Assembly: GCA_963808235.1 (NCBI GenBank)
Contig: CAWEEQ010000004.1
Span: 781,084-845,083, forward strand
Direction: 5' to 3'
Origin: an uncultured delta proteobacterium
GTDB taxonomy: Bacteria > Desulfobacterota > Binatia > Binatales > Binataceae
DNA length: 64,000 nt
The notes under the pieces were generated by a model. The model worked only from the letters and a program-made list of their open reading frames with translations. It did no database searches and was not told the DNA's origin. The translations under genes were made by a program, and so were the position numbers. This document shows, piece by piece, positions 23,201 through 46,584 of this stretch. The stretch's first letter is position 1. Each line of letters starts with the position of its first letter.

Positions 23201-23277
23201 GCCCCCTTAGCTCAGATGGATAGAGCACAGGATTCCTAATCCTGGGGCCGTGGGTTCGAATCCCGCAGGGGGCACCA
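23201..23277 (+). tRNA. tRNA-Arg (anticodon CCT)
   Basis: A 77-nt cloverleaf. Acceptor GCCCCCT/AGGGGGC, D-stem GCTC/GAGC, anticodon stem CAGGA/TCCTG with loop TTCCTAA (anticodon CCT, A37), T-arm GTGGG-TTCGAAT-CCCGC, discriminator A and encoded CCA. Confidence 0.85.
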
Positions 23278-23304: not shown

Positions 23305-23757
23305 TTAAACAGACCCCGCCGGCGCAACCGTTCCGCGTATTACCAGCACCGGGCAGGCAGCTTCCCGAATGACATGCTCAGTGACGCTTCCCAGAACGAA
23401 ATGTCCGAGGCCCTTGCGCCCATGCGTAGCCATCACGATCAAGTCCACGCCGAGCTCCTGAGCAGCCCGCACGATATCAGTATCAGGCACGCCCGTTCTG
23501 ACATCGATCACATATTTCACAGCGGCCTTCACGGTCTTTCGGACTATTCGCGCGAGCCTCGCTTTCGCTTCCTTCTCCCACCGTGGCTCGGCGTCAAATG
23601 GTAGTGGCACGTCCATATCCTGGGTAGGCACTCTGGCAATGTGCAGTATGTAGAGAGTGGCATTGCTTTCTTTTGCGAGCGAGGTCGCCAAAGACAACGC
23701 AACGGTCGTATTTTCATCGAATTCGAAGGCACATAATATCTTGCTGTAATTCAGCAT
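23305..23757 (-). CDS. Universal stress protein (UspA family)
   Basis: 150 aa. ILCAFEFDE...LYILHI...VMATHGRKGLGHFVLGSVTEHVIREAACPVLVIR. Confidence 0.85.
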   Translation of the reverse strand: MLNYSKILCAFEFDENTTVALSLATSLAKESNATLYILHIARVPTQDMDVPLPFDAEPRWEKEAKARLARIVRKTVKAAVKYVIDVRTGVPDTDIVRAAQELGVDLIVMATHGRKGLGHFVLGSVTEHVIREAACPVLVIRGTVAPAGSV

Positions 23758-23792
23758 AGGTTCGGATTCGCCATTCCGGGCGGAAGCCGCCG

Positions 23793-25325
23793 CTAGAATT
23801 CCGCGAGCGATCGACCGGCCGCTCTATCGACCGCTGCCTTGGTCATGGAAAATCCGTAGAGGGCATCGGCGTACGCAGCATCGTCAAAAGTGTAGCTGCG
23901 CTGCGCATCTTCCAGTTCGATAATGCTTGTCAGGCCTGCTTCATAGCGCTTCTCCGCGAGTTCCAGTTCCGCATGTGAAGCAGCAAGCGTCCTTTCCGCG
24001 CGGGAGATGCGCTGAAGAGAAGCCTGCCAATTGAGAAACGCAGTACGGACCTGCAAGTTTATTTCTTGCCGCAGATCTTCGATCGCGCGCAGGATCGCGT
24101 GTTGCCGAAACCTCGTCTCCGCAATCTGGTCGGTAGTTAGAAAGCTGTTGAAGATTGGCCATGTGATCACGATCCCGACATTGAAATTATTCGCGGCAGG
24201 AGTTCCGGTCCCGAGCGCTGAGTAACCGCCCACCGCACTGGCGGTGGGATAGTAGTCACTCTGATACTCGACGATTTTCGCACCCATGGCTTTCGCCTGA
24301 TCCTGCAGCGCCTTCAAATCCGGTCTGGTTCGAAAAGCCGCGTCAAGCAACCCATTTAATGAGTCGTTGATCGGATGGTAGGTCAGGATGTCTGCTGGTT
24401 CAAACGCGGGTGCCGAGTCACTGAGACCCAGAGCATTGTCCAGCGCAACCTTTGCGTCTTCGTCATCATTACGGGCGTCGACGAGATGCAATTGAGCTCG
24501 CTCAACTTCGGCTTGCGTAACATAAGTATCGAGCTGTGGGCGCAGACCGGCGTTAGCCTTAACCTGAGCCTCGTGCAGATGATATTGACGCTGCTCCAGT
24601 GCCTTCTCGTAAACCTCGATCAGTCGTTTCGCTTGCAGCAACGCGAAGTATCGTTGCGAGACCTCGAAGATCAAATCAAGCTCAGTGAGCTGCTGATCGG
24701 CAGCCACGGCAGCAGCTTCAAACTGTCGCTCCGAAACAAATCCATGTCGGCGGCCGAAATCGACAAGAAACTGGGAGAGGCTCACGCCTCCCATGTAGTT
24801 ATTGCTGGTGTCCCAACCTTGCGAAGTATCATTCGCCGGGAGGTTGTGATTGGTTCCACTTATTCGCGGAAACGCTCCGTCCGGATTGTAGTAGCTCGCA
24901 TTGCCGATGCCATTGTCGGTGCTGCGCAAATATTGCGCGGCACCAAATAGTTGCGGACCCAGGTACGATCGCGCCTGGCCGATTTGCTCCTGAGCGGCGC
25001 TGGTGTTGTCCGCCGCTTCCTGGAGTCTCGGGTGATATTTCAGAGCGATCGCGATTGCTTCCTTGAGTGTCAATTGCGAGCCCGGCAGAATTGGTCCGGC
25101 GCTTGAGCCGGTCGGCTCGGATCGGGCCGTTTGGCTGGAAGTTGACGAGTTGATAGTTGACGCCGTCCCTAGCGACCAGCTGGTTCCTGGCCCCGGCGTT
25201 CCCGTAGCCGACGCCGCAGTTTGCGTTTCACCGAGTAGTACCTCCGCGGGGCCCGCGGCGTTAGCGACGCCATGAGCTGAGAGAAGGAGGTATGCGACAA
25301 GAAGCAGGATTCGCGAAGATTCCAT
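23793..25325 (-). CDS. TolC-family outer membrane efflux protein (OMF)
   Basis: Signal peptide and an S/T-rich low-complexity N-region, then duplicated OEP helical repeats. It is the last structural gene of the RND operon. Confidence 0.8.
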   Translation of the reverse strand: MESSRILLLVAYLLLSAHGVANAAGPAEVLLGETQTAASATGTPGPGTSWSLGTASTINSSTSSQTARSEPTGSSAGPILPGSQLTLKEAIAIALKYHPRLQEAADNTSAAQEQIGQARSYLGPQLFGAAQYLRSTDNGIGNASYYNPDGAFPRISGTNHNLPANDTSQGWDTSNNYMGGVSLSQFLVDFGRRHGFVSERQFEAAAVAADQQLTELDLIFEVSQRYFALLQAKRLIEVYEKALEQRQYHLHEAQVKANAGLRPQLDTYVTQAEVERAQLHLVDARNDDEDAKVALDNALGLSDSAPAFEPADILTYHPINDSLNGLLDAAFRTRPDLKALQDQAKAMGAKIVEYQSDYYPTASAVGGYSALGTGTPAANNFNVGIVITWPIFNSFLTTDQIAETRFRQHAILRAIEDLRQEINLQVRTAFLNWQASLQRISRAERTLAASHAELELAEKRYEAGLTSIIELEDAQRSYTFDDAAYADALYGFSMTKAAVDRAAGRSLAEF

Positions 25326-25385
25326 TGTTAGCTCACCCGCCTGTTCGGCGATCTATTTCGTGTTGACCCCCTTGGCTAGTTCAGA

Positions 25386-26594
25386 TCAGTCGGAGCTTTG
25401 AACTGGCGCCGACTTAGTCTGCACATCCCGGTTCTCTATCCTACAATCAACTGGGACTCCCGGAGTGAGAGTGCTGCTATAGGTCGTCACTACCAGCGAC
25501 TTCGCCGACACCCCCGAGGTTACCTCTACATAAGCGCCGTTGTTGATCCCCGTTTTAGCCGGAACTTCGGCAAGACGGCCGTTGTCTACAATCAATAGGC
25601 GCGCTGAGCCTCCCGATCCCTGAATCGCTGAGGCCGGTACACTCAGAGCGTCAGGATGCCGGATCAGTTCGATGCTGACGTGCGCATAGCTTCTCGGATA
25701 GATCAGGCGGTTCGGATTATCTATGTCGACCTCAGTCAGCATTGTGCGAGTTGCGAGATCGAGCGACGACGCATACCTGGCGACGATGCCATTGAAGACT
25801 CGGCCAGGAAATTCGTCGAAGTGCAGCATCGCCGGGGTGCCACGATGGATGAACGGATATGAAGCCTCCGGAACGTAGATATAGACTCGTAATTTATCTA
25901 TGTCGGCGAGCGTCAGGATCGGGCCGCCACCCTCGCGATGCCCTCCGGCGCCCTCAGTAGCTCCTGGGGAAATCAACCCCGAGGTTTCGTCAACTCCAAG
26001 GTCACCGCCGCCGGCGCGGATCAGAGCCCCGGGATCGGCGAATCGCCCAGTGATTACTCCATCGAAGGGCGCGATGATTTTTGTATATGAGAACATAGTC
26101 TGCAGGGTTGCAACCGCGGCTTGAGCCTCACGATACTTGGCATAAGCCATGTCGACGTCTTGCTGCGATATCAGCCGTGAGTCACTCTGCTGGACCTTCT
26201 TCAAACGATCATAAGTTATGCGCTCGATTTCGAGGCTAGCCTGCGAGCGCGTTAGGTTCGATTGCAGTTCCGGTACTTCGATTTCGGCCAGCACCTGACC
26301 GGTCTTGACCGAGTCGCCCTTGTCCACGCTGATACTCTTCAAGTATCCGGTGACTTTCGAATGAAGAGCAGCCTCGTAGAAGCCCACAACGTCGCCTGGG
26401 AGTTCGATACTTTTGTCTATTTCTCCACGGCGTGGATATACAACGTTCACTATCGGTCGTTGAGTCGTAGTCATGGGCGTGACAGGCGTGTCGCAGCCGC
26501 TCGTGCATAAAACGACGATCGATAAGATAGTCGTTACTGCCCAGCCTAAACCCCTCACTGTCGTTTGCTCCCCGGGAACTAGTAGCATGGACAT
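25386..26594 (-). CDS. Efflux RND transporter periplasmic adaptor subunit (MFP)
   Basis: A biotin-lipoyl-like hairpin and beta-barrel regions (VTGYLKSISVDKGDSVKTGQVLAEIE). Its start overlaps the RND permease stop by 1 nt. Confidence 0.85.
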   Translation of the reverse strand: MSMLLVPGEQTTVRGLGWAVTTILSIVVLCTSGCDTPVTPMTTTQRPIVNVVYPRRGEIDKSIELPGDVVGFYEAALHSKVTGYLKSISVDKGDSVKTGQVLAEIEVPELQSNLTRSQASLEIERITYDRLKKVQQSDSRLISQQDVDMAYAKYREAQAAVATLQTMFSYTKIIAPFDGVITGRFADPGALIRAGGGDLGVDETSGLISPGATEGAGGHREGGGPILTLADIDKLRVYIYVPEASYPFIHRGTPAMLHFDEFPGRVFNGIVARYASSLDLATRTMLTEVDIDNPNRLIYPRSYAHVSIELIRHPDALSVPASAIQGSGGSARLLIVDNGRLAEVPAKTGINNGAYVEVTSGVSAKSLVVTTYSSTLTPGVPVDCRIENRDVQTKSAPVQSSD

Positions 26595-29500
26595 CAGCCT
26601 CGGTCCTCATTCGGCGTCTGCACGGCCGCTGCCCGTTCGATCCGCCGATAGAAGAACTCGTAAATGCAAGGGACGAGAAACAATGTAAGTACGGTGGACA
26701 CCGCAAGACCGCCCACCGCGGCCCTTGCCAGGGGAGCCGAAGCTTCTGATCCCTCGCCGAGCTTCAACGCGATCGGCATAAGACCAGCCACCGTGGCCAA
26801 GGCGGTCATCAGGATTGGCCGCATTCTTATGCGGGCGGAATCGATCGCCGCGCGTCTTAGCTCATGTCCCTGGCGGCGTCGTTCATTGGCGAAGTCGACG
26901 AGCAAAATCGAATTCGACACAACGATACCGACCATCACGATGATCCCCATGAACGATTCTATGTTGAGTGTGGTTCCTGTCGCCCACAACGTCCAGATGA
27001 CGCCTATCAATCCCATCGGGACCGCGAACATGATGATGAAGGGGTCCAGGAAAGACCGAAATTGAGCCACCATCACCAGGTAAAGTAGAACGACCGCCAG
27101 CGAGAGACCGAAGCCGAAGCTCGAGAAAGATTTCTGCATCGAGCTTACGGCGCCGCGGTACCTGACGGAGACGCCCGGAGGGAGAGTCATCTTGCTCACC
27201 TCGCGCTGGATTTTCTCCTGCGTGCCACCCAGATCCTGGGTGCTGGGTGCGACGAGCAGATCGACAATCCGCTGAATGCTGTAATGATCTGCTTCGGAAG
27301 GGTGGGATTCGGGAGCAATAGACGCCACATCACGCAGCAAAAGGCTCTGCGCGTGTCCCGTTTCCTTGTTCACAGTCTCGATAGGGATGTTTTGCAGCAC
27401 CTCCAGAGAATCAAAGCCATTCTGGGCGCCTAGGTACTGCACCGTCAGAAAGTAGTCGTCCTTGTTTGCGCGATCGATCCAGATCGATGGTTTAATGTAC
27501 AGGTTTGAATCGAGCGCGGTGATGACGTTCTGAATGACTTCCTGCTGCGCTACGCCCAAACGCGCCGCTCTCACGCGGTCGACCTTGATGTTTAGTGTCG
27601 GATAGTCCAATTCCTGGGCGATGAAGCTCTGCGAAACTTGAGAGAGGGCGTTGATTCTCGCTTGAAGTTCCTTCGCCGCATTATGCAACTCGGTAAAGCT
27701 ACTACCGGCAAATTCGACATCGATGGGAGCTATCTTCCCGAGATTGAGAACGGAGTCGATTATGCTGCCTGAGGAAAACAGGGTACGGGCGTTCGGCAGT
27801 TGTATAGGGAGCAGTTGCTTCAACCGGGCTACATAGTATTGGGTCGGATGTCGGTGACCGGACTTGAGCGCCACCTGCATGAAACCTGAATCCTGGGCCG
27901 AGTTAGGCGAGTAAATCGCCGATATGCTGGGGGCAATTCCGATATTCGAAACGACCATGTCGAGCTCGTCCGGCGGAATCACCTTTCTGACAAGGTCTTC
28001 GATTCGACGCGCCATATCGGTGGTCAGTTCAATACGAGTACCGGCTGGCGCGCGAAAATTGATCGTGAACATTCCCGCATCGGTCTCCGGAAACAACTCG
28101 GTACCGAGACGTGGATACATCGCGAGACTTACGACGAACAGAATCGTAACCCCCACGATGACCACAGACTTGTGGTCCAGCGCATTTTCAAGAAGACGCT
28201 CGTAAGCGGAGGCAAAGCGCTCATACGCGCGATTGAAGATCGCGAACACCCCGGAAGATTCGCCGTGCTCCGCCGCGAGCGCCTGTTCGCGGGTGAGAAA
28301 ACGAGCACAGTAGATCGGTATTACGCTCATCGCGACCAGATACGACGCGGCCATCGATAGCACCACCGCCAGCGCCAGCGCACTAAACAGGTACTTCGAG
28401 ACTCCAAACAGAAACATGACCGGGAAGAAGACGATGCAGGTGGTAACGGTCGACGCCAGAACCGGTAGCGCGACCTCCTCGGCCCCATCACGTGCTGCAG
28501 CGTGCGGTTCCTTGCCTTCGGCAAGATGACGGTTGATGTTCTCGAGGACAACCACCGAGTCATCGACTAGTCGGCCGATCGCAAGCGCGAAGCCTCCAAG
28601 GGTCATGATGTTCAGCGTCGAGCCATTGAAGTATAGACCGAATGCCCCTGCCAGAATGGAAAGTGGAATCGAAAGAAAAATCGCAAAGGTCGATCGGAAG
28701 CTGCCGAGAAATATAAGAATCATGAGCGAGGCCAGAACTGCACCGGATATGGCCTCATGTTCGAGACTATCTACCGCCTGTCTGACGTAGATGGACTGGT
28801 CTAGTATGGTCTTCAGTTTCATCCCGGCTGGCAGGCCGAAAACGTTTGGAATCAGTTGCTTGACGCCATCCACCACCGAAATGGTATTGGCGCCGGCTTG
28901 GCGAAGAACCGGGATGTATACCGACGGTTGCCCGTTAATCAGCACCGTATTGTATTGAATCTGAGCAGAGTCTGTGACCTTACCGACATCATCCATCAGC
29001 ACGGGGGCCTGACCACGTCCTATCTTCACTGGCACCTGGTTAATATCGGGCACCTTTTCGATCAAGCTGTTCGAATAGATGTAGTAATCCTTGGATCCGA
29101 TCTTGACGTCGCCTGCGGGCAAGATGACGTTGGACGTGTCGAGCGCACTGACAACGTCCATTAGCGACAGGCCACGCGCTTGCAGCGCTTGCGGATTTGC
29201 GTATGCCATCACCTGTCGAAACTTGCCGCCGAAGGGAATCGGTACCGACGCGCCCGGCACCGTCGCCAGCTGATTGCGAACGTTGTAGCGGGCTTGATCC
29301 TCGAGTTGCGTCTCGTTGTAACCTTTACCTCCGAGCGTGACCAACACCACCGGCAGAGATGATGCGTCGTACTGCAGCACCAGCGGCGGGAGCGTCCCCG
29401 GCGGCAGAACCCCGAGATCGGCCTCCGCCAAGGTTCCCATCTGCGCGGCGGCAGCCGCAACGTCGGTGCCCGGCTGAAAGAACACTTTGATGATGCTCAC

Positions 29501-29755
29501 ACCCGACAGCGAACGCGACTCGATATGCTCAATGTTGCTGCCCAACGTAAAGAATCGCTCGTAGCGAAAGGTGATGTTGTCTTCCATGTCGAGCGGCGGC
29601 ATGCCCTGGTAAAAGGTAGCCACCACAACCGCTGGGATTTTAATGTCCGGAAAGATGTCCACCGGCATCTGCGTAAACGCCGTTGCACCCAGAATCACGA
29701 TGATCAGCGCTCCGACAATGATTAGGTACGGATTGCGCAGCGAGAAACTTGGCAC
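26594..29755 (-). CDS. Efflux RND transporter permease subunit (AcrB/CzcA superfamily)
   Basis: 1053 aa with 12 TM helices and two large periplasmic loops, the typical RND topology. Confidence 0.9.
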   Translation of the reverse strand: MPSFSLRNPYLIIVGALIIVILGATAFTQMPVDIFPDIKIPAVVVATFYQGMPPLDMEDNITFRYERFFTLGSNIEHIESRSLSGVSIIKVFFQPGTDVAAAAAQMGTLAEADLGVLPPGTLPPLVLQYDASSLPVVLVTLGGKGYNETQLEDQARYNVRNQLATVPGASVPIPFGGKFRQVMAYANPQALQARGLSLMDVVSALDTSNVILPAGDVKIGSKDYYIYSNSLIEKVPDINQVPVKIGRGQAPVLMDDVGKVTDSAQIQYNTVLINGQPSVYIPVLRQAGANTISVVDGVKQLIPNVFGLPAGMKLKTILDQSIYVRQAVDSLEHEAISGAVLASLMILIFLGSFRSTFAIFLSIPLSILAGAFGLYFNGSTLNIMTLGGFALAIGRLVDDSVVVLENINRHLAEGKEPHAAARDGAEEVALPVLASTVTTCIVFFPVMFLFGVSKYLFSALALAVVLSMAASYLVAMSVIPIYCARFLTREQALAAEHGESSGVFAIFNRAYERFASAYERLLENALDHKSVVIVGVTILFVVSLAMYPRLGTELFPETDAGMFTINFRAPAGTRIELTTDMARRIEDLVRKVIPPDELDMVVSNIGIAPSISAIYSPNSAQDSGFMQVALKSGHRHPTQYYVARLKQLLPIQLPNARTLFSSGSIIDSVLNLGKIAPIDVEFAGSSFTELHNAAKELQARINALSQVSQSFIAQELDYPTLNIKVDRVRAARLGVAQQEVIQNVITALDSNLYIKPSIWIDRANKDDYFLTVQYLGAQNGFDSLEVLQNIPIETVNKETGHAQSLLLRDVASIAPESHPSEADHYSIQRIVDLLVAPSTQDLGGTQEKIQREVSKMTLPPGVSVRYRGAVSSMQKSFSSFGFGLSLAVVLLYLVMVAQFRSFLDPFIIMFAVPMGLIGVIWTLWATGTTLNIESFMGIIVMVGIVVSNSILLVDFANERRRQGHELRRAAIDSARIRMRPILMTALATVAGLMPIALKLGEGSEASAPLARAAVGGLAVSTVLTLFLVPCIYEFFYRRIERAAAVQTPNEDRG

Positions 29756-30419
29756 GATGCAAACTCCCTGTCACCGGCGAAGTGATTACGCCGGTGGACT
29801 TTGACTTGACTATAACCGCCCGCGAATATCGGGCGCGTGTTAGCGAATCTGAAGTTTGCTTACAGCGGGTCTTGGCTTTCCGCGCGCGAGGGGAGCAATT
29901 TGAATCGTCTTATGAATGGCTGTACGGAAGGAGTCGCGAATCTGAACCTCGGTAAGGGCCTCACGGCCAGGTTGTCCGATACCGACGTCAAGTACTTCGG
30001 GAATGAAACATCAAGCGCTTGAGAGCCGGAATCGAGGTCGGGCTGACTTGACGAGGCCTTGGTGAATCTCTGTGCACCGCTAAGCCTATTCTGCTCGCAC
30101 GATCCGCAAGACACGCGAAAGTGTGGAACCTGCAATCGAGGGGTGAAGGCCACGATGCTCGTCACGATGAGAACCGCGGCAACCAGTTGCAGATGTAGAC
30201 GAGAAAACATTACTCCGACGCTCATCTTATCGTTCCGCATTTTCGAATGCAAAGCGGAAGAATCTTTCCGCGTCTCGCGAAGATTTCCGCATTCGGCAGA
30301 CAACGTTTATTGCAGTCTGCCCTCTCGTTCAATCACGCCAGGAGCAGGTGCCAACTTTGCGGCGTATGATGTATACGTCGTGAAGCTTTTCAGAGACGCG
30401 AGTCCGAGCGCTGGGCCGG

Positions 30420-30875
30420 ATGCCCTTATTCAAGAAAATTCTTTGTCCTCTCGATTTCGATCAGAATTCGCTTCTGGCGCTCCAGGTTGCGACCGAACTG
30501 GCGCGGGAACGCAAAGCGACCCTCGATTTGCTGCACGTCGTCTCGATACCTTCCGGACCCGAGGTTGCGTTACCCTTCGCCAAAATGGAGAAGGCCGCAC
30601 GAACCAGGCTTGAGCGGCTGGCGGGCCAAAAAATAGGCAGCAAAGTCTCCCATCGCGTCGACGTATCGATGGGCGATCCGGCCGCCGAGATCATTCATAC
30701 CGCGAAAAAGTTGGATACCGATCTTATTGTGATGGCAACCCACGGACGGAAAGGACTCCGTCACCTTGTGCTGGGAAGCGTAGCCGAACGCGTGGTGCGG
30801 GAAGCCCCGTGCCCGGTGCTCGCGATCAAGTCGAAAGCTCCGGCCGCGAAGATCAAAAGACCTCGATCGAAATAA
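30420..30875 (+). CDS. Universal stress protein (UspA family)
   Basis: 151 aa. ILCPLDFD...LDLLHV...VMATHGRKGLRHLVLGSVAERVVREAPCPVLAIK. Confidence 0.85.
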   Translation: MPLFKKILCPLDFDQNSLLALQVATELARERKATLDLLHVVSIPSGPEVALPFAKMEKAARTRLERLAGQKIGSKVSHRVDVSMGDPAAEIIHTAKKLDTDLIVMATHGRKGLRHLVLGSVAERVVREAPCPVLAIKSKAPAAKIKRPRSK

Positions 30876-31153
30876 TTCGCTGTATGACGTCACAGCTCAA
30901 ACGGTCGAAATCCTCGCGGTCGTCGCGAAATCAGAACTGTCGCGCTTTCCGCGGTTGGCAGAGAGGGCCAGGGGATCGAAATCTGGTTAAATTCAAGCCA
31001 TGAGCGGTGATGAAGGGAATATGGGGATCCGCCAAAAGGGTTTCACTGATACAAGAGCAATAATGAGGCTGCTTAAGGCTTGACTAATTTCTTGTCTTGC
31101 TCCATAGTGATGCTGCCACCGAAAGGGCGGGCAAAAACGGGGAAGGTAGGATA

Positions 31154-31399
31154 ATGCAACGATCACGAGAAAATGATGAGACTCAGCCGGAATTCTATAC
31201 TGTCGGCCAGCTCGCGGACTTGCTCCAACTGACGCCGATGACGATATACCGGATGGTCAGACGCGGCGAGCTCGCCTGTCATGCGATCGGGCGAATCAAA
31301 CGCTTTCGCCGCGGCGACGTAGAGACGTTCCTCGAGAATTCCAGGCAGCCGGCCTCGGAAGCCACCGCGGCTCCGGCTCCTCGCCGTCTCGATGGCTGA
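31154..31399 (+). CDS. Excisionase-family (MerR-superfamily) HTH DNA-binding protein, paralog 1
   Basis: EFYTVGQLADLLQLTPMTIYRMVRRGELACHAIGRIKRFRRGDVETFLE. The start was chosen by homology with paralog 2 and because GGAAGG lies 8 nt upstream. The ORF track extends to 31097. Confidence 0.7.
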   Translation: MQRSRENDETQPEFYTVGQLADLLQLTPMTIYRMVRRGELACHAIGRIKRFRRGDVETFLENSRQPASEATAAPAPRRLDG

Positions 31400-31663
31400 A
31401 GACTCTCGGCGAATAAGTTCCAGCAGCCCCTGAGATTACCGCTACTTCCTGAGCGCTCGCGGGTCAGTACGCGTTCGTGCCCGGCGGTAATTTTTCCCCC
31501 AGCTCTTTCCTCAAAACAGATTCTGCGAACGAGTGTAACCACCAGTACAAACTGGTTGCAGGGAAGAGTCGCGTCTATAGAAGATGGAGGGCGAGCATTG
31601 TAGAAGCTTGACAGGAGCGTTGCATTCCCAAAGGATAGCGCAGCAGTCGATTACGGGGGAAAA

Positions 31664-31882
31664 ATGCAACGCTCACGTCCGAAAGAAGACGCCCAGCCCG
31701 AGTTCTACACCGTTGGACAACTTGCCGATTTGCTGCAACTCACACCCATGACCATTTACCGCATGGTCAGGCGCGGCGAGTTGGCTTGTCACGCGATCGG
31801 TCGCATCAAGCGTTTCAGACGCGGCGATGTCGAGGCTTTTTTACAAAGCTCGAGGAAACCAGCGGCAAGCGCACCAAGCTAA
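31664..31882 (+). CDS. Excisionase-family HTH DNA-binding protein, paralog 2
   Basis: 72 aa. The core is almost identical in protein sequence to paralog 1 but is encoded with many synonymous differences. Confidence 0.7.
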   Translation: MQRSRPKEDAQPEFYTVGQLADLLQLTPMTIYRMVRRGELACHAIGRIKRFRRGDVEAFLQSSRKPAASAPS

Positions 31883-32103
31883 GACTTGCTCGTCTTACGC
31901 TCGGCGCCTGAATCGCCGTTGGTTTGGTGTTCCGGTTCCCTGGCTACGCTCCCGCCCGCCGCGACCCATTGATCGACGACTGGCACTTCAAAGCGCAGAT
32001 CCCGTCCAACTCTAATAGCCCGCAACTGGCCTCTTCGCACCAGCCTGCGAACGGTAGCCGGATTGACATGCAGGTAGTCGGAAACCTCACGCAATGTGAG
32101 CAT
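31879..32103 (-). CDS. Excisionase-family HTH DNA-binding protein, paralog 3 (convergent)
   Basis: MLTLREVSDYLHVNPATVRRLVRRGQLRAIRVGRDLRFEVPVVDQWV. AAGGA precedes the internal ATG at 32103. The ORF track extends to 32160. Confidence 0.65.
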   Translation of the reverse strand: MLTLREVSDYLHVNPATVRRLVRRGQLRAIRVGRDLRFEVPVVDQWVAAGGSVAREPEHQTNGDSGAERKTSKS

Positions 32104-32160
32104 CCTTGCTGGCATATGCTCGCCCCTGGCTGACTCCATTCGACCCGGATTCATCCGCAA

Positions 32161-32511
32161 GCTCGCAAAAGTCTCATCAGGTTTGTCCTCGCCGTTTCGG
32201 TGACCGGAGGTGGCCGGAGGTCTCTAAATCTATTTGACTGTCTAATGCGCATTATCATTCAAATTACTTGACGACGACTCATCTATTGCTTGATGACCAT
32301 CATCTGCTTTCTCAAACGTAGCAAGATTTCAAAGACTAATCAAGCCATGAAAATATTGTCAAGTTAAGATAAAGCTGTTAGAATTCTAAAGCGTGGCATC
32401 TTTATTTACTTTATTTTATGTCTCATTGCTTTGTTTATTCTTTTATGGTACAGTCTTACATAGCGTGCATCCCTTACGATTCATGCGTCGAATCGCGTAC
32501 TGACCTGAGCA
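32161..32511. promoter_or_regulatory. About 350-bp AT-rich island (about 35% GC in a 62-65% GC background) immediately upstream of the exopolysaccharide operon
   Basis: Visible in the base composition. Contains A/T tracts and several TTGACn/TAnnnT-like hexamers. No ORF of 60 aa or more. Confidence 0.6.
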
Positions 32512-33252
32512 GTGAGAAAAAAAACCATGAAACGAAAACTATTGGTCATAGCTCTTCTGTGTTGTGCGCAGCTTCTGTTCGGATGCTCCGCGAAGGACCC
32601 GGAGGCTACCGATATCAAGGGTGTGTCGATGGCGCCGGTGTCGCCTGCCTGCCAATTCACTTCGGTCGACGACCAGTTTCGATCATACCGGATTCAGCCG
32701 GGCGACCAGCTCGACATCAGTTTTTATATGAGCCCCGAGTTTGACCAGGACCTGACCGTACGACCCGACGGCGACATCTCGATGCCGGTGGTCGGCAATA
32801 TTCACGTGCAGGGACTAACCCCGGTCGGGCTCGAGAAGAATCTCAATCAGCTCTATTCGCAGGAGTTGAAAGATCCGAAGACCACGGTCCGCATCGACAA
32901 GAGTCCAAGCCAGGTCGTGTACGTCGAGGGCCAGGTTGGCAAACCCGGCGCGGTGCCGCTGCAGCCCGGGATGACCGCGATCCAGGCGATCGCCGCGTCG
33001 GGCGGAATGAACGATAACGCCGGACCGAGCCGGGTGATTCTCATAAGACGCGACGCGTGCGGGAACGCGCACGGGCAGCCTCTCAAGCTCGACAAAGTGC
33101 TGAACCAGAAAAATAACGAAGAAGATGTGGCGCTGCTGCCTTCGGACATCGTGGTCGTACCGCGCAGCGGGATTGCCCAATTCGATCTCGACGTGAAGCA
33201 GTACGTGCGCGACGCGATGCCGGTCGAAGTCTACGCCGCGCCGCCATTTTGA
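32512..33252 (+). CDS. Polysaccharide export protein (Wza/EpsE-like, SLBB domains)
   Basis: Lipoprotein-type signal peptide LLVIALLCCAQLLFGCS. Poly_export and SLBB motifs IQPGDQLDISFY...GDISMPVVGNIHVQGLT. Confidence 0.85.
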   Translation: MRKKTMKRKLLVIALLCCAQLLFGCSAKDPEATDIKGVSMAPVSPACQFTSVDDQFRSYRIQPGDQLDISFYMSPEFDQDLTVRPDGDISMPVVGNIHVQGLTPVGLEKNLNQLYSQELKDPKTTVRIDKSPSQVVYVEGQVGKPGAVPLQPGMTAIQAIAASGGMNDNAGPSRVILIRRDACGNAHGQPLKLDKVLNQKNNEEDVALLPSDIVVVPRSGIAQFDLDVKQYVRDAMPVEVYAAPPF

Positions 33253-33262
33253 GCCGAGTGGG

Positions 33263-34786
33263 ATGAATCAGATGAACAACGAAGCTGTAATGCAGTGGAT
33301 AGAGAAGATATTCCGGCGCCGGGCGTTGGCGCTCCGGATAGGCCTGCTGGTCTTCGGCGTAATCGCGCTGGGCTCGATCATGTGGCCCCCGAGCTACGCG
33401 TCGTCGTCGAAAATCCTGGTTCAATCCAACCGCGCGCAACTGCTGGTCTCGCCCGGGCTGAAGGAAGACGCCGCCAATCAATCGACCCAAACGGTTCCGG
33501 TGGCGGAGCAGGACCTCAACTCGGAGGTCGAGCTGCTGACCAGTCCGTTCCTTATTAAGCAGGCGCTCGCGGGGATGAAGCTCAATCAACGCAAGGGCGG
33601 CGTGATCGCGGGAATGCGAAACATTGTCGACGCGGTCGTCAGCGTCCCGACAGACGTGTACACGGTGCTGCACGGAGGCCCCAGCGCGACTGCGAACCAG
33701 GACGAGATTCAGAAAATCGTGAATCATCTCAGCGCGGACGTGATCAAGCGCTCGAATGTTATCGAGGTTTCGATTGTCTCGCACGATCCCGCGTGGGCGA
33801 AAGCGTTTCTCTCGCAATTGATGACTTCATACCTGAACCTGCACGGGCAGTTGTCGCAGAATCCGCAGGCGCAGGCATTTTTCCAGCAGCAGCGCGCGCT
33901 GCTCGATCAGCGCCTCCAGGACTCAGAGAAGGAGTTGCGCGCGGCGCAACTGCAGACCGGAATCGCTCAATTCAGCGAGCAGCAGCAGGCGCTCATCAAC
34001 CAGGTGTCCGCCGCCGAGGCGAACTATCGCACCACCAGCGCCTCTCTGGATTCCAAGCTGCAGCAGATCAGGAGCCAGGAAGCCGAGTTGAAGCAGACTC
34101 CGCAGCGTCAGACCAAGGAATCGAAGTCGGTCCAGAACATGGCGCTCAGCCAGTTGAAGCCGCAGATGCTTCAACTCGAAACCGAGCGTGCCGAGTTGTT
34201 GAGCCGCTATCAGCCCACCAGCGAGAGAATCCGTGCGATCGACGCCAAGCTGAAAGCCGGCCAAATCATCCTGAGCCGCGAAGATAAGACCAACGTCCAG
34301 GAAACCACCACCGATGTGAATCCGACCTGGCAGGCGCTCGATGCCGATTTGGCCAAAGCGCGGGCCGAAGCCGCGTCGGATAAGGCGGCGCAGACCACTG
34401 AAGCGGCGCAAGTCGCAACGTTACAGAATCAGCTCAAACAGATGACCACGGATGGAGTCGAGATCGAACGCCTGCAGCGCAAAGTCGATAGCGACAAGGA
34501 AGCGTACATGTCGTACGTGCGCAAGGGCGAGGAGGCCCGCGCGGCCGAGGCTCTTAACCAAAGCCGGATCCTGAACGTGAGCGTGGTGCAGGATCCGACC
34601 ACTCCGATCGATCCGGTGTCGCCGCGAATCCGGTTGAATCTGATCGCCGGGCTCCTGTTTGCCCTGATGCTGGCGGTCGCCGCGGCGCACTGGACCGAGG
34701 AATACGATCCCAAGATTTGTTCGACCGCGTCGATATTCAAGGACACCGGGCTCAGCACGGTCGCGATCCTCGACGACAGGTTGTAG
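33263..34786 (+). CDS. Polysaccharide chain-length determinant protein (Wzz/GumC/EpsF-like, PEP-CTERM-locus type; no kinase domain)
   Basis: TM1 near the N-terminus, a long periplasmic coiled-coil and TM2 near the C-terminus (LIAGLLFALMLAVAAAHW). There is no Walker motif. Confidence 0.8.
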   Translation: MNQMNNEAVMQWIEKIFRRRALALRIGLLVFGVIALGSIMWPPSYASSSKILVQSNRAQLLVSPGLKEDAANQSTQTVPVAEQDLNSEVELLTSPFLIKQALAGMKLNQRKGGVIAGMRNIVDAVVSVPTDVYTVLHGGPSATANQDEIQKIVNHLSADVIKRSNVIEVSIVSHDPAWAKAFLSQLMTSYLNLHGQLSQNPQAQAFFQQQRALLDQRLQDSEKELRAAQLQTGIAQFSEQQQALINQVSAAEANYRTTSASLDSKLQQIRSQEAELKQTPQRQTKESKSVQNMALSQLKPQMLQLETERAELLSRYQPTSERIRAIDAKLKAGQIILSREDKTNVQETTTDVNPTWQALDADLAKARAEAASDKAAQTTEAAQVATLQNQLKQMTTDGVEIERLQRKVDSDKEAYMSYVRKGEEARAAEALNQSRILNVSVVQDPTTPIDPVSPRIRLNLIAGLLFALMLAVAAAHWTEEYDPKICSTASIFKDTGLSTVAILDDRL

Positions 34787-34791
34787 CCGAT

Positions 34792-36375
34792 ATGTATTAC
34801 GAACACTTCAGACTTAGCGGCGCTCCCTTCGAGTTCAATCCCTCGGCGTCGGTGCTCTTCATGAGCGCGGGGCATCGCGAAGGATTGGCGGCGCTCGAGT
34901 GGGGACTGTCCGAGCCGAGCGGATTCACGATGCTGGTCGGCGAGATCGGGACCGGCAAGACCACGCTCATCTACTCGCTGCTCGCGACGCGGCATCAGGG
35001 CGTCCGGACCGCGTGGGTGGCGAATCCGCGCTTAAGCTTCGAAGACATGATGCGCCAGATTTTGGGCCAGCTGGGCGCAGTTGCGCCGGAGACGTCGGGC
35101 AAGCTCGCGCTGCTGCAGGCGTTCGACGCGCAGCTCGCGAGCCATGGGCTCGAAGAGTGCGTGGCGGTGATTGTCGACGAGGCGCAGGACCTGAGCGACG
35201 ACGCGCTGGAAGATCTGCGCCTGTTGACCAACTTTCAATCGCTCGAGCGCAGACGCCTGCAAATAGTGCTGGTCGGTCAGCTCGATCTCGCCAGAAGGCT
35301 GGGGCGGCCGCAACTGCGCCAACTGAATCAGCGAATCGGTGCGCGCGCGCTGTTGCCGACTCTGCAGGACCGGGAGATTTACGACTACGTCGAATACCGG
35401 CTGCGCTCGCGCGGCGGAGATATCGAGAACCTGTTCACGCGGAGCGCGATGCGGGAGCTCGCGCGCGCGAGCGGCGGAATCCCGCGGCGGATCAACATGC
35501 TTTGCCACAACGCGATGCTGCAGGCATACGCGGACGGCGAGCAATTCGTCGCCGAAAAGCATGTGCGTGCCGCCGCCAGCGACTACGATAATTTGCTGGT
35601 CGGCAAAGATTCGGCGTCCGCGAAGATGGCCGCATCGGCGAGCGCGGCGATGCAATCCGCGAGCACAAAGATACGGTCGGCGAGCGCGTCGATGCATTCA
35701 TCGGCGGTCTCGATGGCGCCGGCGATGCGTTCGGGCGCGACCAAGGCGGTTCGCGCGTTGAGCGCGGCGGCAACATTCGGGGCGCTGAGCTTGCTCGGCG
35801 TAGCGGTAGTCGGATTTTGCGAGATGCAGCCGGTGCACAATGATCTTTCCGCGCTGGTCAGGAAATTCGAATCGAAAGCGGCGAGTTTCAGAAGGCCAAT
35901 CGTGGTGCAGCGGGCGCCGGCGCAGTTCGTGACCGGTTCGTCCCCGGCGACCGTTCCGGCGCCGAACACAATTGGTTCGGCTCCAGCGGCCGTTCATGAC
36001 AGCACCGCCCCGGGCGCCCACGAATTGAGTACGCGCGGACACCTCAGGGGTCTTTCGGCGACTGGCCGGCGGGTTCCAGTCAAGCCGCAACCTGAAGCGA
36101 GCGCCGTTCCCAATATTTTGCCGGTGACGTTGTCGCCGGTCGGAAATATTTCCGCATCTCCGGATTCTTCGACGAAACCAGATGACGGCGCCTTGCGCAC
36201 CGACTCGACCATTTTGGTCAGGGCGGGCGACTCGCTCAGCAAGATAGCGATGAGAATCTATGGTTCGTTCGGAGCCGATGAAGTTAAGCGATTGACCGCG
36301 GCGAATCCGCAAATCAAGGACGCGAACGTGATCTATCCCGGTCAGTCTATTCACGTGCAGCAAGCTACCAAATGA
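34792..36375 (+). CDS. AAA ATPase of the XrtA/PEP-CTERM-associated (ExeA-like) type with C-terminal LysM domain
   Basis: Walker A VGEIGTGKTT, Walker B AVIVDEAQ and a sensor region. The C-terminus ILVRAGDSLSKIAMRIYG...VIYPGQSIHV is a LysM motif. The real start is the ATG 6 nt after the upstream stop; the ORF-track start at 34717 lies inside the previous gene. Confidence 0.75.
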   Translation: MYYEHFRLSGAPFEFNPSASVLFMSAGHREGLAALEWGLSEPSGFTMLVGEIGTGKTTLIYSLLATRHQGVRTAWVANPRLSFEDMMRQILGQLGAVAPETSGKLALLQAFDAQLASHGLEECVAVIVDEAQDLSDDALEDLRLLTNFQSLERRRLQIVLVGQLDLARRLGRPQLRQLNQRIGARALLPTLQDREIYDYVEYRLRSRGGDIENLFTRSAMRELARASGGIPRRINMLCHNAMLQAYADGEQFVAEKHVRAAASDYDNLLVGKDSASAKMAASASAAMQSASTKIRSASASMHSSAVSMAPAMRSGATKAVRALSAAATFGALSLLGVAVVGFCEMQPVHNDLSALVRKFESKAASFRRPIVVQRAPAQFVTGSSPATVPAPNTIGSAPAAVHDSTAPGAHELSTRGHLRGLSATGRRVPVKPQPEASAVPNILPVTLSPVGNISASPDSSTKPDDGALRTDSTILVRAGDSLSKIAMRIYGSFGADEVKRLTAANPQIKDANVIYPGQSIHVQQATK

Positions 36376-36393
36376 CGAACTTAGGTGTGACCC

Positions 36394-37254
36394 ATGAGTA
36401 GATACTTTCAGGCAATGGAACGCCGCAAGAACGGAATGGTTCCGTTAACTGATTCCAGGATAGGTGATGCGAGAATCGCTGATTCCAACTTCGCTGATTC
36501 GAAGGTCGTTGAGTCGAAGATCATCGATTCCAAGATCATCGAGACCAAGACCAAGCCGTTCTCACACTCACAGGCTGTAGCGCGAACTCAGCCGATGGCG
36601 CTTCCGTCTGTTTCGGAGCCGCAAGGGTTGCTCGATACGCTCGCATGCTGCCATTCGATGCGCAGCTTGAGCGAGCAGCTGGCGGCGGCGAGCGCGCACA
36701 ATGGCCCTGCGCGAATACTCATGACCGGATGCCGGCCGGGCGACGGCGTATCCACCGTGGCTGCGGCGATGGCGCTCGACATAAGTCAGCGCCTGGCGGC
36801 GCGGACAGTGCTGGTAGAAGGACAGCCGCGAGTCACGATGATGCATCCGTTCTTCGCGCGCTCTTGCGCGCCAACTCCCGCGACGATCACGAGCGCGTCG
36901 ATCGCCGTGCAAGGAACCGGATATCCGCGGCTCGAGACGGCGCGGCCGGAGCAGTTGGCGCTAGCGGACCAACCGGCACGGCTGGTGGAAGATCTGGACG
37001 AATTACTTATGCGCTATCGCCTGGCGGTTATAGATCTCGGCGTAGTGCGTTTGGACCCACGAATGTTAGCGCTGGCGCGGCCCACCGATCCGATCCTGAT
37101 TGTGGCCCGACATCTGCATACAGATCGAGCGGAAATGATCGCGACGGCAAACATCCTGCGCTCTACCGGACATCCCGTAGCTGGGGTGATTCTGAATGGA
37201 TACAAGTCGCCGTTGCCATCGCTGGTTCGCCGCCTTGTTGGAATGGAGGAATAA
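36394..37254 (+). CDS. BY-kinase-like (CpsD/CapB/MinD-fold) protein with degenerate Walker A and N-terminal pentapeptide repeats
   Basis: The C-terminal half aligns to the BY-kinase catalytic domain (MTGCRPGDGVSTVAAAMAL...VLVEGQP...LAVIDLGVV...ILIVARH...VAGVILNGY). The Walker A Lys is replaced (GDGVST instead of GxGKST/T) and there is no C-terminal Tyr cluster. Confidence 0.6.
   Translation: MSRYFQAMERRKNGMVPLTDSRIGDARIADSNFADSKVVESKIIDSKIIETKTKPFSHSQAVARTQPMALPSVSEPQGLLDTLACCHSMRSLSEQLAAASAHNGPARILMTGCRPGDGVSTVAAAMALDISQRLAARTVLVEGQPRVTMMHPFFARSCAPTPATITSASIAVQGTGYPRLETARPEQLALADQPARLVEDLDELLMRYRLAVIDLGVVRLDPRMLALARPTDPILIVARHLHTDRAEMIATANILRSTGHPVAGVILNGYKSPLPSLVRRLVGMEE
36451..36555 (+). 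repeat. Seven tandem 15-nt (5-codon) repeats inside the 36394..37254 CDS
   Basis: The units gattccaggataggt / gatgcgagaatcgct / gattccaacttcgct / gattcgaaggtcgtt / gagtcgaagatcatc / gattccaagatcatc / gagaccaagaccaag encode DSRIG-DARIA-DSNFA-DSKVV-ESKII-DSKII-ETKTK. Confidence 0.85.
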
Positions 37255-37257
37255 GCA

Positions 37258-38379
37258 ATGGAAGATCTTATCTCGCACAATGGTACTCTAGCCGGTTCAC
37301 ACAACGGCATTCACGCGCCATCAAGTGTGCCTACCTACTCAACTCGGCGCCAAATGCGCGGGATTGCGATTGTTGGGCTCGGCTACTGGGGGCCCAACTG
37401 GGTGAGAAATTTTTCCCAGATACAGGGAATCGACCATGTCGTGTGCTGTGACTTCAGCCGCCCGCGGCTCGATCACATCAAGGGACGTTACCCATCGGTA
37501 GTCATTACCGACCAGCTAGACCGGGTGCTCACCGATCCCGCGATCGACGCGGTCGTAGTTGCTACGCCGGTTAACACTCACTTTGAGATAGCAAGTCGAT
37601 GCCTGAAGGCAGGTAAGTCGACGCTGGTCGAGAAGCCACTGGCTACCTCATGCGACCAGGCAGAGCTTCTAATAAAGATGGCGCGCGAGCGCGATCTGAC
37701 GCTTATGGCGGGCCACACCTTCGAGTACAGCGCGCCGGTGGTGAAGATTCGCGAGCTGATCGACAGCGGCGAGCTCGGCGATATTTTCTACATCAGCTCG
37801 GTGCGCGCGAATCTCGGGCTCTTTCGCCGCGACGTCAACGTGGCCTGGGATCTGGCTACGCACGACATCTCGATCATCCTGATGCTGCTGGGCGAGATGC
37901 CGCTTGAGGTGACTTGCCAGGGCGAGAGCCACTATCACGATCACGTCGAAGACGTTGCGCTGCTCACGCTTCGCTTTGCCAACAACGTGATCGCTTTCGT
38001 GCACGTTAGCTGGCTCGATCCGAACAAGATTCGGCGCACAACTATAGTAGGTTCGCGCAAGATGCTGGTGTACGACGACACGGCGTTGCAGGAAAAAGTC
38101 CGCGTCTACGATAAGGGCGTCACCAAGCATCCTTACTACGACACTTATGGAGACTTTCAGCTTTCATATCGTTACGGCGACGTGAATATCCCGCGGATCG
38201 ACGACCCGGAGCCGCTCAAGGTGGAATGCGATCACTTTATTGAATGCATCAAGAGCGGGATTGCACCGAACAGCGACGGACTGAGCGGACTTAGAGTAGT
38301 GAAGGTGCTGGAAGCAGCCGACCGTTCGCTCAAGAGTCACGGAAGGCCGATAGCGCTTACTCCAACCAGGGTGAACTAG
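37258..38379 (+). CDS. Gfo/Idh/MocA family oxidoreductase (WbpB-like UDP-sugar 3-dehydrogenase candidate)
   Basis: Rossmann motif IAIVGLGYWGPNWV, an EKP motif and the Gfo/Idh/MocA C-terminal domain. GGAGG lies 6 nt upstream of 37258. An internal Met at 37354 is an alternative start. Confidence 0.8.
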   Translation: MEDLISHNGTLAGSHNGIHAPSSVPTYSTRRQMRGIAIVGLGYWGPNWVRNFSQIQGIDHVVCCDFSRPRLDHIKGRYPSVVITDQLDRVLTDPAIDAVVVATPVNTHFEIASRCLKAGKSTLVEKPLATSCDQAELLIKMARERDLTLMAGHTFEYSAPVVKIRELIDSGELGDIFYISSVRANLGLFRRDVNVAWDLATHDISIILMLLGEMPLEVTCQGESHYHDHVEDVALLTLRFANNVIAFVHVSWLDPNKIRRTTIVGSRKMLVYDDTALQEKVRVYDKGVTKHPYYDTYGDFQLSYRYGDVNIPRIDDPEPLKVECDHFIECIKSGIAPNSDGLSGLRVVKVLEAADRSLKSHGRPIALTPTRVN

Positions 38380-38411
38380 CACACACCACTTAGATGTAGC
38401 ACTGAAAGAAT

Positions 38412-38924
38412 GTGAGAACTGAGATGTCACCGCACGAACTACCACCCAACGTATGCGCCTCGGCCGACGTGATCCTGGGCGAGGAGGTCCAATTAGCACC
38501 TTTCGTAAATCTATACGGATGCAGCGTCGGAGACGCGTCGCGAATCGGCGCCTTCGTGGAAGTTCAGCGCGACGCGCACATCGGCAAGCGCTGCAAGATA
38601 TCGAGTCACACTTTCATTTGTTCCGGCGTCACTATTGAAGATGAGGTTTTCATCGGTCACGGGGTGCTGTTCATCAACGATCGGCATCCACGCGCGACCA
38701 ACCCCGACGGCACCTCCAAGACCCCGGACGATTGGGTGATGGAGCGCACTTACGTGCGGCGCGGCGCCTCGATTGGGAGCGGTGCGATCATCATGTGCGG
38801 CGTCGAGATTGGCGCGAGATCGATGGTCGCAGCCGGTGCGCTAGTGACCAGTGACGTTCCCGCGCGAGCAACTGTCCTAGGTATACCGGCACGTCTATAT
38901 ACCGGCCAGCGCCGGTCCGCATAG
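38412..38924 (+). CDS. Hexapeptide-repeat (left-handed beta-helix) N-acetyltransferase, WbpD/WlbB-like
   Basis: 170 aa with repeated [LIV]G-x4 hexapeptides (IGAFVEV, IGKRCKI, IGHGVLF, IGSGAII, IGARSMV). Confidence 0.75.
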   Translation: MRTEMSPHELPPNVCASADVILGEEVQLAPFVNLYGCSVGDASRIGAFVEVQRDAHIGKRCKISSHTFICSGVTIEDEVFIGHGVLFINDRHPRATNPDGTSKTPDDWVMERTYVRRGASIGSGAIIMCGVEIGARSMVAAGALVTSDVPARATVLGIPARLYTGQRRSA

Positions 38925-38941
38925 ATCAGGAGTCGAACGAG

Positions 38942-40078
38942 ATGCCAATCAAATTTTTGGACCTCGCGGCACAGAACCGCGAAATCATGCCACAAGTCGA
39001 GCGCGGCTTCGCGGAAATCCACGAGAAGACTTCGTACGTTGGAGGCCCACAGGTGGCGGCGTTCGAAGAGGAATTTGCGAACTTCCTGGGCGCCCGCCAG
39101 GTGATCAGCGTGGCGAGCGGGACCGACGCGCTAAGACTCGCGCTGCTCGCGATCGGAATCGGGCCGGGCGACGAAGTGATCACGACTCCGATGACGTTCA
39201 TCGCGACTGCCGAAGCGATCGTGCAGACCGGCGCGCGGCCCTCGTTTGTGGATATCGATCCGAACACCGGAAATATGAGTGTTCCGGAAATCTCGCGCTA
39301 CCTCGAGCGGGGACGCTTCACAGCGCCCAACGGCCCGCGCGCGATCGTCCCGGTTCATCTCTACGGAATGCCGGCGCCGATGATCGAAATGCGCGATCTC
39401 GCGCAGGCGTGCAACCTTAAACTGATCGAGGACGCATGCCAGGCGCATGGCGCGCGCATCACTCACGACGGCCAATCGCAATATGCCGGCACGATCGGCG
39501 CGGCCGGTTGCTTCAGTTTTTATCCCGGTAAGAATCTGGGCGCGTGGGGCGAAGGCGGGGCCGTGGCGACCAATGACGAGGAGCTGGCGGCGCAGATCCG
39601 TACGTTACGCGACCACGGACGCCTTTCGCACTACGCGCACAGTGCATATGGATACAATGCGCGGCTCGACACGATGCAGGCGGCGGTACTCCGTCCGAAG
39701 CTCGAGCGCCTGGCGGAGTGGAATGCACGACGCCGGCACTTCGCGGCGCTTTATCGTGAAACTCTGCCTCACGAGGTGGAGCTGCTGTCCGAGCCCGAGG
39801 GTATCGAGTCGTGCTACCACCTGTTCGTCATCCGCAGCGAGCGGCGAGACGCGATCAGAACCGCGCTGCTGCAAAACCAGATCGAGTGCGGGATCCATTA
39901 CCCGGTTCCGCTTCATCTACAGCCGGCATGCCGCGACCTCGGATATGCGCAAGGAGATTTTCCGCACGCCGAGACGATGGCTGACACCGTGCTGTCATTG
40001 CCGATGCATCCCTTTCTGACCGAGCGCGAAGTTAAGACGGTCAGCCAGGCAGTCAAGCGCGCATTAACCACAGGTTGA
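38942..40078 (+). CDS. DegT/DnrJ/EryC1/StrS family aminotransferase (WbpE-like)
   Basis: A PLP-fold signature including FSFYPGKNLGAWGEGGA (the Lys-containing active-site region). 378 aa. Confidence 0.85.
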   Translation: MPIKFLDLAAQNREIMPQVERGFAEIHEKTSYVGGPQVAAFEEEFANFLGARQVISVASGTDALRLALLAIGIGPGDEVITTPMTFIATAEAIVQTGARPSFVDIDPNTGNMSVPEISRYLERGRFTAPNGPRAIVPVHLYGMPAPMIEMRDLAQACNLKLIEDACQAHGARITHDGQSQYAGTIGAAGCFSFYPGKNLGAWGEGGAVATNDEELAAQIRTLRDHGRLSHYAHSAYGYNARLDTMQAAVLRPKLERLAEWNARRRHFAALYRETLPHEVELLSEPEGIESCYHLFVIRSERRDAIRTALLQNQIECGIHYPVPLHLQPACRDLGYAQGDFPHAETMADTVLSLPMHPFLTEREVKTVSQAVKRALTTG

Positions 40079-40085
40079 TAATGTT

Positions 40086-43114: not shown

Positions 43115-43115
43115 C

Positions 43116-44291: not shown

Positions 44292-44304
44292 GAGGAGTTA
44301 TCAA

Positions 44305-45120: not shown

Positions 45121-45139
45121 CGGCAGCCAAGAAGTGAAA

Positions 45140-46570: not shown

Positions 46571-46584
46571 CGGATGTGGGCGAC

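Follow-up and report, generated by a model that had tools for sequence, protein, structure and literature searches.

We analysed a window of 64,000 nucleotides from contig CAWEEQ010000004.1 of an uncultured delta proteobacterium (Binatia, Binataceae), with the focus on three small genes of the excisionase family, here called par1, par2 and g3, that stand in front of an exopolysaccharide (EPS) operon. Their products most probably regulate transcription, a useful but unsurprising result, and the trio is best explained as a vertically inherited chromosomal cassette of the Binatia, an uncultured soil lineage. It is strongly supported by sequence comparison that par1 and par2 are ancient tandem duplicates kept by purifying selection. 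We further put a probability of roughly 55% on the reading that the trio regulates the neighbouring EPS operon in a BldC-like way, acting on the divergent promoter island between g3 and the operon. The original prediction had suggested that these genes may be regulators of that operon and not true excisionases; an excisionase remnant is indeed contradicted by the data, and operon regulation, with a target that we infer, comes out as the best reading.

The two paralogs are nearly the same protein. Identity extends to 57 of the first 66 residues and to 47 of the 49 that make up the core, from EFYTV to FL(E/Q). An almost identical core of 60 amino acids had been proposed, and the very high identity stands, but the identical core is about 48 amino acids long. 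The DNA of the pair is 73% identical over about 200 nt, and among 66 codons the differences number 8 at first, 2 at second and 44 at third positions, which agrees with the many third-position differences noted earlier. By the method of Nei and Gojobori (NG86) the proportion of differences is 0.895 at synonymous (pS) and 0.085 at nonsynonymous sites (pN), and with a pS of that size the synonymous distance dS is not estimable. The same codon stands in both genes at 19 of the 54 residues that are identical and degenerate, where independent draws from the codon usage of the window predict 21.2 ± 3.5 (P = 0.31). Since codon sharing equals the independent expectation, the synonymous sites are saturated, that is, fully randomised but no further. 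Divergence beyond saturation, which would suggest selection against recombination, is rejected by the same comparison.

The two genes can be followed as separate types, A for par1 and B for par2, through the related genomes. The tails distinguish the types (ETFLENSRQPAS... in A, EAFLQxxRxPA in B), and both recur in this order in 14 further distinct loci of relatives, of which 13 adjoin the EPS operon. In the protein tree A and B fall for the most part into separate groups, and the nucleotide tree, noisy as it is, never pairs both copies of one genome. Codon identity at identical residues is 0.53 among A orthologues and 0.58 among B orthologues; between A and B it is 0.478 within one genome and 0.490 between genomes. 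Gene conversion between A and B was rejected on these two equal values and on trees without clustering within genomes. The ratio of nonsynonymous to synonymous change (dN/dS) lies between 0 and 0.18 for orthologues of A, B and g3, calculated for the less diverged orthologue pairs. Par1 orthologues are 74-93% identical in the Binatia loci, and the core keeps a mean identity of about 47 of 49 residues, while the neighbouring proteins are 70-87% identical. The duplication is older than the split of at least 15 distinct lineages, with both copies retained under strong constraint, because the synonymous sites are saturated, the tails and promoters are type-specific, gene conversion has left no sign and the dN/dS of orthologues is low. 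The pattern is that of the anciently duplicated regulators under purifying selection that had been postulated, and it gives a clean natural case of protein-level stasis, in which a core of 49 amino acids stays about 96% identical while its synonymous sites are fully randomised.

The order of an A gene, a B gene, g3 on the opposite strand, and the genes for polysaccharide export, a chain-length determinant (GNVR) and an ATPase is shared by the window with 13 further distinct Binatia loci (L002, L004, L006, L008-L012, L016-L018, L041 and L042), as seen when the window proteins were mapped onto the fetched loci. Eleven of the 14 loci, with the window included, are separate species representatives. 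The flank upstream of the cassette varies and holds acyl-CoA dehydrogenases, LPG synthase/DUF1329, CLC channels, TetR/glyoxalase or Usp/RND genes. Conservation of the trio beside this operon in related genomes had been proposed as a check, and the comparison places it directly upstream of the same EPS operon, with the other flank variable. In a scan of one genome per prokaryotic species the close family is confined to genomes labelled Binataceae, Candidatus Binatus or "uncultured delta proteobacterium", the exceptions by label being one Acidiferrales bin and a few bins given as Proteobacteria and nothing finer. For the exact par2 protein the only record is a single metagenome contig of 4.5 kb, where its neighbours are also identical, and soil metagenomes contain about 130 homologues each for par2 and g3. 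Distant homologues in Binataceae (61-70% identical), single or in tandem, edge other polysaccharide clusters with GT2, Polysacc_deac_1 and Wzy_C genes, so that the link to polysaccharides holds at two evolutionary depths.

Several related loci carry further genes in or beside the cassette. A conserved gene of about 110 amino acids with a Cys-rich N-terminus, here called g4, lies between the par1- and par2-type genes in most of them, for instance at L004:7356-7688 and L006:8473-8811, both on the minus strand. It is missing from the window and its closest relatives (L041-L043), where the spacers between A and B are about 260-290 nt, as against 660-855 nt elsewhere. No Pfam family matches g4, and its confident helical AlphaFold model (pLDDT 80) has no fold match in the PDB; distant homologues (29-41% identical) occur within about 6 kb of distant HTH_17 homologues. 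In L002:9573-10896, which is the same as L014, a gene for a Crp-like regulator is inserted between the par2-type gene and g3, and a truncated third par2-like fragment overlaps the 3' end of g3. A PhdYeFM-type antitoxin-like gene precedes the par1-type gene directly at L006:7388-7720, L042:11393-11638 and L043:3697-3942, and the equivalent position in the window holds a Usp gene (30420-30875).

All three small open reading frames are present where they had been placed, with one start moved. For par1 the ATG start (MQRSR...) is the one used by homologues, and the longer reading frame from TTG at 31097 has no homologue support. The third, convergent gene is real and ends at 31879 as had been said, but its start had been put at 32103, and it most likely begins at 32115, judging from a homologue alignment in which this Met (MPARMLTLREV) is nearly invariant and preceded by a Shine-Dalgarno-like AGGGG. 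The protein of g3 is 39% identical to that of par2 over 38 amino acids. The GC content of the three genes is ordinary for the window, only the promoter island being AT-rich. In the window and 12 other loci the stop codons of the par2-type gene and g3 range from a 4-nt overlap to about 6 nt apart, which means that the two transcripts must overlap at their 3' ends; an effect of this overlap on regulation is conceivable.

The proteins belong to a well-defined family. Pfam HTH_17 (PF12728) scores 50.2 bits for par1, 51.7 for par2 and 43.3 for g3 against a cut-off of 27, and TIGR01764, "excisionase family DNA-binding", gives 45.3, 45.0 and 42.0 bits against 28.8. The AlphaFold model of par2 (mean pLDDT 77.8, core 86-92) has the order strand-helix-helix-strand-strand-helix, with elements E14-16, H17-24, H28-37, E43-45, E48-52 and H53-63; the last helix has 11 residues and the tails are disordered. 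According to the model, par2 is a bare winged helix-turn-helix with no coiled coil. In Foldseek it comes closest to the BldC-DNA complexes 6AMA and 6AMK, Pukovnik Xis (4J2N) and RdfS (8DGL), followed by NmlR, RacA and SoxR. Sequence matches to solved structures are marginal only (the family profile against BldC, and g3 against Pukovnik Xis).

We propose that the three proteins control EPS production together. With a nearly identical DNA-binding core, par1 and par2 presumably have a common DNA specificity. What sets them apart are the tails at the N- and C-termini and the promoters, par1 having a good -35/-10 pair and par2 a good -35 and a poor -10 box. The third protein has a different recognition helix, and its gene is divergent from the EPS operon and convergent into par2. 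The proteins would bind as monomers and multimerise on the DNA as BldC does. Their targets would be the AT-rich island between g3 and the EPS operon and probably also their own promoters, so that EPS production could be switched on or off; the two paralogs, each under its own control, would bring separate inputs to the same sites, and the tail-to-tail overlap could make the expression of par2 and g3 antagonistic. A more detailed version, which we consider doubtful, is a lineage-specific EPS or biofilm switch where par1 and par2 form mixed BldC-like head-to-tail filaments on the AT-rich island, g3 opposes them and is antagonistic through the stop-to-stop overlap, and g4 modulates the switch in most relatives. 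The cassette belongs to a phylum without cultured members, and the trio with its presumed target region of 411 bp offers concrete, testable candidates for EPS control in the Binatia.

The original prediction had given each paralog its own upstream region with TTGAC, and both were found, each conserved within its type (Table 1). A GCTTGAC box precedes both genes, and the two upstream regions otherwise do not align. Fourteen aligned loci keep the block GGCTTGACTAAT...N...(C/A)ATAGTG before the par1-type gene, and 11 loci keep the block AAGCTTGACA...CAAAGGAT before the par2-type gene. The par2 candidate was missed by the consensus promoter scan. Both are putative promoters, read from the sequence. 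A long hairpin behind par1 is a possible terminator, and its fold energy does not differ significantly from that of shuffled sequences (z = -0.54). An inverted repeat of 17 nt, 88% complementary, connects 31610-31626 in the spacer of the par2 promoter with 31663-31679 at the par2 start codon, and this sequence also matches the par1 start (31153-31164). This repeat was dropped as probably due to chance, the complementarity apparently not being kept in other aligned loci when judged by eye.

Table 1. Positions of the cassette genes, the first gene of the EPS operon and the candidate control elements in the window
Feature	Position	Strand	Description
par1 (type A)	31154-31399	+	81 amino acids; HTH_17 winged-helix protein; C-terminal tail ETFLENSRQPAS...
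par2 (type B)	31664-31882	+	72 amino acids; HTH_17 winged-helix protein; tail EAFLQSSRKPA...
g3	31879-32115	-	78 amino acids; HTH_17 protein; convergent with par2; stop codons overlap by 4 nt
par1 promoter candidate	31080-31108	+	-35 TTGACT (31080-31085), 17-nt spacer, -10 CATAGT (31103-31108); consensus scan
Candidate par1 terminator	31432-31500	+	Long hairpin AUUACCGC...GCGGUAAU then UUUUU; RNA fold
par2 promoter candidate	31608-31636	+	-35 TTGACA (31608-31613), 17-nt spacer, weak -10 AAGGAT (31631-31636)
Divergent g3/EPS control region	32116-32526	.	411 bp; contains AT-rich island, 38-39% GC
EPS-facing promoter candidate	32356-32384	+	TTGTCA-N17-TAGAAT; consensus scan
EPS-facing promoter candidate	32426-32454	+	TTGCTT-N17-TACAGT; read from alignment of g3/EPS region
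Conserved leader before first EPS gene	~32455-32526	+	Block GATCGCGTAC
First gene of EPS operon	32527-33252	+	Polysaccharide export, Poly_export/SLBB; start MKRKLLV chosen from orthologues

Within the divergent region a 12-locus alignment reveals several conserved blocks, among them TAGCAA...AAAGC..CAAGC and AAGTTAAAATAAAT. In front of the first EPS gene stands a leader of about 70-100 nt whose sequence is strongly conserved in 10-12 loci, with an invariant block GATCG.G.AC. Its consensus fold, of only 8 pairs with one compensatory change, gives no support for a structure; the leader may serve the operon as a site of protein binding or antitermination. Rfam gave no credible match within 29700-32700. 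A unit of 22 nt, ATTACTTGACGACCATCATCT, is tandemly duplicated at 32263-32305 between g3 and the operon and is missing from 11 other aligned loci. Tandem and dispersed repeat searches of 30880-32560 returned only the paralog pair, this window-specific duplication and short matches at chance level.

The operon itself, at 32527-47385, is a Wzx/Wzy-type EPS cluster. Its first gene, the presumed target of the cassette, has TIGR03027 (XrtA/PEP-CTERM export) as its best NCBIfam match, with 121.6 bits below the cut-off of 180, and Pfam Poly_export and SLBB are annotated on the identical public contig. The first three genes are nearest to the export, chain-length and ATPase families of the XrtA/PEP-CTERM type, all of them under the cut-offs. 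Behind them come genes for sugar-modifying enzymes, for a priming transferase that passes the cut-off of TIGR03025, and for a flippase and glycosyltransferases. Further along, one gene matches an exosortase-associated O-ligase-like family below the curated cut-off, and no exosortase family was among the matches for the scanned reading frames of the operon.

Several observations weigh against the trio as BldC-like regulators of the EPS operon. In two loci, L005 and L015, the cassette adjoins a Usp-OEP-MFP-RND operon and not the EPS operon, with g3 truncated, and in L019 A and g3 are present and B is missing. No 6-8-mer present in at least 70% of the upstream regions was common to the par1-type, par2-type and g3/EPS genes, the sole shared one being the -35 box GCTTGAC between par1 and par2. 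The A/T tracts of the island have no phasing of 10-11 bp across 11 loci, and no direct-repeat array of the BldC type was found in the searched stretch 30880-32560. The Foldseek E-values are all 0.005 or worse, which makes the ranking weak, and the matches to Xis equal those to BldC. Similarity between the family profile and BldC is marginal (E ~0.5), and for the BldC family NF033787, with a cut-off of 77 bits, g3 reaches 26.2 while par1 and par2 have no match at E <= 0.01. The extreme conservation of the core would, finally, suit a global regulator equally well. As for the position of the odd loci, the cassette of L015 lies at about 10001-11386, and in the window the orthologous RND operon (23305-29755, minus strand) is on the other side of the cassette, which suggests a rearrangement between the two neighbourhoods.

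In the main rival reading the trio would be global or architectural DNA-binding proteins with a genome-wide regulon, like BldC in Streptomyces, which is pleiotropic (PMC5859096), and its position beside the EPS operon would reflect conserved history and not a dedicated target. A core far more conserved than the neighbouring proteins suggests many constrained surfaces or target sites, and the failure to find a locus-specific operator and the one lineage with the cassette beside RND genes point in the same direction. Against it stand the adjacency to polysaccharide clusters at two evolutionary depths and in two different arrangements, and the conserved divergent promoter region common to g3 and the EPS operon. 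We regard a global role as possible, although on the whole unlikely.

The efflux genes in the neighbourhood could also be the target instead of the EPS operon. In the window par1 is 278 nt downstream of a Usp gene, and the Usp-OEP-MFP-RND operon that adjoins the cassette in L005 and L015 is about 4 kb off in L016; in most loci, however, that side of the cassette holds unrelated genes, and the fetched flank of 8-10 kb is free of RND genes, and control of Usp/RND efflux is improbable. Quite improbable too is that the trio acts mainly by protein-protein contacts, through inhibition of a response regulator or pairing with g4, and that DNA binding is secondary. The TorI excisionase inhibits a response regulator, and g4 sits between the par1- and par2-type genes in most loci and has distant homologues near distant HTH_17 genes. 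The window and its closest relatives nevertheless lack g4 and keep all three helix-turn-helix genes intact and under selection, and the residues that contact DNA in BldC are conserved. A role as helix-turn-helix parts of a toxin-antitoxin or defence system, of the type of MAD1 in MADS or of the AbiEi antitoxin, is very improbable: MAD1 is matched weakly (33.7-35.9 bits in NCBIfam, 26-33 bits in PADLOC), AbiEi_4 at about 17 bits, and a PhdYeFM-like gene stands upstream of the par1-type gene in L006 and L042, but the scores are far under the curated cut-offs (80 for MAD1, 25 for AbiEi_4), and no methyltransferase, nuclease or toxin partner was found among the scanned reading frames of the window or conserved across loci, nor did those reading frames include any defence gene.

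The least probable reading is that a decayed prophage or integrative element left the trio behind as excisionases (recombination directionality factors), because it is contradicted by the synteny in 14 distinct loci, the strong purifying selection, a gene GC content normal for the window and the lack of mobile-element genes among those scanned. In its favour are TIGR01764 and PHROG 66, both "excisionase" families, as the best named families, Xis structures among the top fold matches, and a tRNA-Arg gene 8 kb upstream. Family scans covered nearly all large reading frames of the window, the few remaining ones being judged from their translations alone, and returned genes for metabolism, transport, regulation and polysaccharides; none of the matches was to an integrase, transposase or phage family, and no integrase or phage gene was found in the Pfam-annotated related loci either, just as the original prediction had stated for the surroundings of the trio. 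No att-like direct repeats flank the cassette within 30880-32560. Only distant relatives turned up in collections of mobile DNA, with 2 matches of at most 40% identity among 50,697 phage records, 15 of at most 44% among 72,556 plasmid records and 3 of 42-47% among 2.9 million viral contigs. The window has two tRNA-Arg genes and neither adjoins a recombinase; one of them, tRNA-Arg(CCT) at 23201-23277, abuts the first of the two Usp genes (23305-23757 and 30420-30875) that bracket the RND efflux operon, with no recombinase nearby. A true excisionase would be expected to have an accessory distribution, and instead the same order recurs beside the same EPS operon. Small genes of the "excisionase family" are often taken as marks of prophages or genomic islands, while this set is core-like, ancient and tied to a surface-polysaccharide operon.

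Having set the excisionase remnant aside, we return to the trio as chromosomal regulators and to the systems that they resemble. With the excisionases of phages and of integrative and conjugative elements they share the fold (4J2N and RdfS 8DGL, TM-score 0.62-0.64 normalised to the par2 query) and a HTH_17/TIGR01764 domain above cut-off in all three proteins, and Pukovnik Xis is the best PDB sequence match of g3 (E = 0.0017). They differ from them in having no integrase partner and no mobile-element context, and in showing a core-genome-like synteny with strong purifying selection across species. The "MerR-like" label of the original prediction is right as to the fold, since the winged helix-turn-helix module superimposes on classical MerR proteins (NmlR 5D8C, SoxR 2ZHH), but proteins of 72-81 amino acids have neither the long dimerisation helix nor a sensor or effector domain. 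The scores for MerR_1 (16.4 bits, cut-off 21.6) and MerR (16.8, cut-off 28.2) are both below threshold. The spacers of the candidate promoters are 17 nt here, whereas promoters that are targets of MerR typically have spacers of 19-20 nt.

The closest likeness in architecture is to BldC of Streptomyces (68 amino acids; 6AMA, 6AMK), which is likewise chromosomal, very small, made of a MerR-type winged helix-turn-helix only without a coiled coil or an effector domain, and very strongly conserved inside its lineage, as are par1 and par2. BldC is a monomer that assembles head to tail on direct repeats carrying an AT-rich element; its Arg30 reads a pyrimidine-guanine step, its basic wing (His46, Arg47, Arg48) enters the minor groove, and the contacts between subunits need the hydrophobic Leu43 (PMC5859096). 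In a profile alignment Arg30 corresponds to R33 of par2, Arg47/Arg48 to K49/R50 and Leu43/Gly44 to I45/G46. Throughout the par family R33, R50 and G46 do not vary, and K49 and I45 vary hardly at all; in g3 the Arg is kept and the Leu43 position is lost through a deletion of one residue. Differences are that no direct-repeat operator was found beside the cassette genes, and the fixed arrangement of three genes, with an ancient paralog pair among them, that is tied to a polysaccharide operon. The par proteins thus resemble BldC in architecture without being members of the BldC family in the curated sense, and they add a non-actinobacterial lineage to those where bare winged-helix proteins of the BldC/Xis type appear as chromosomal regulators.

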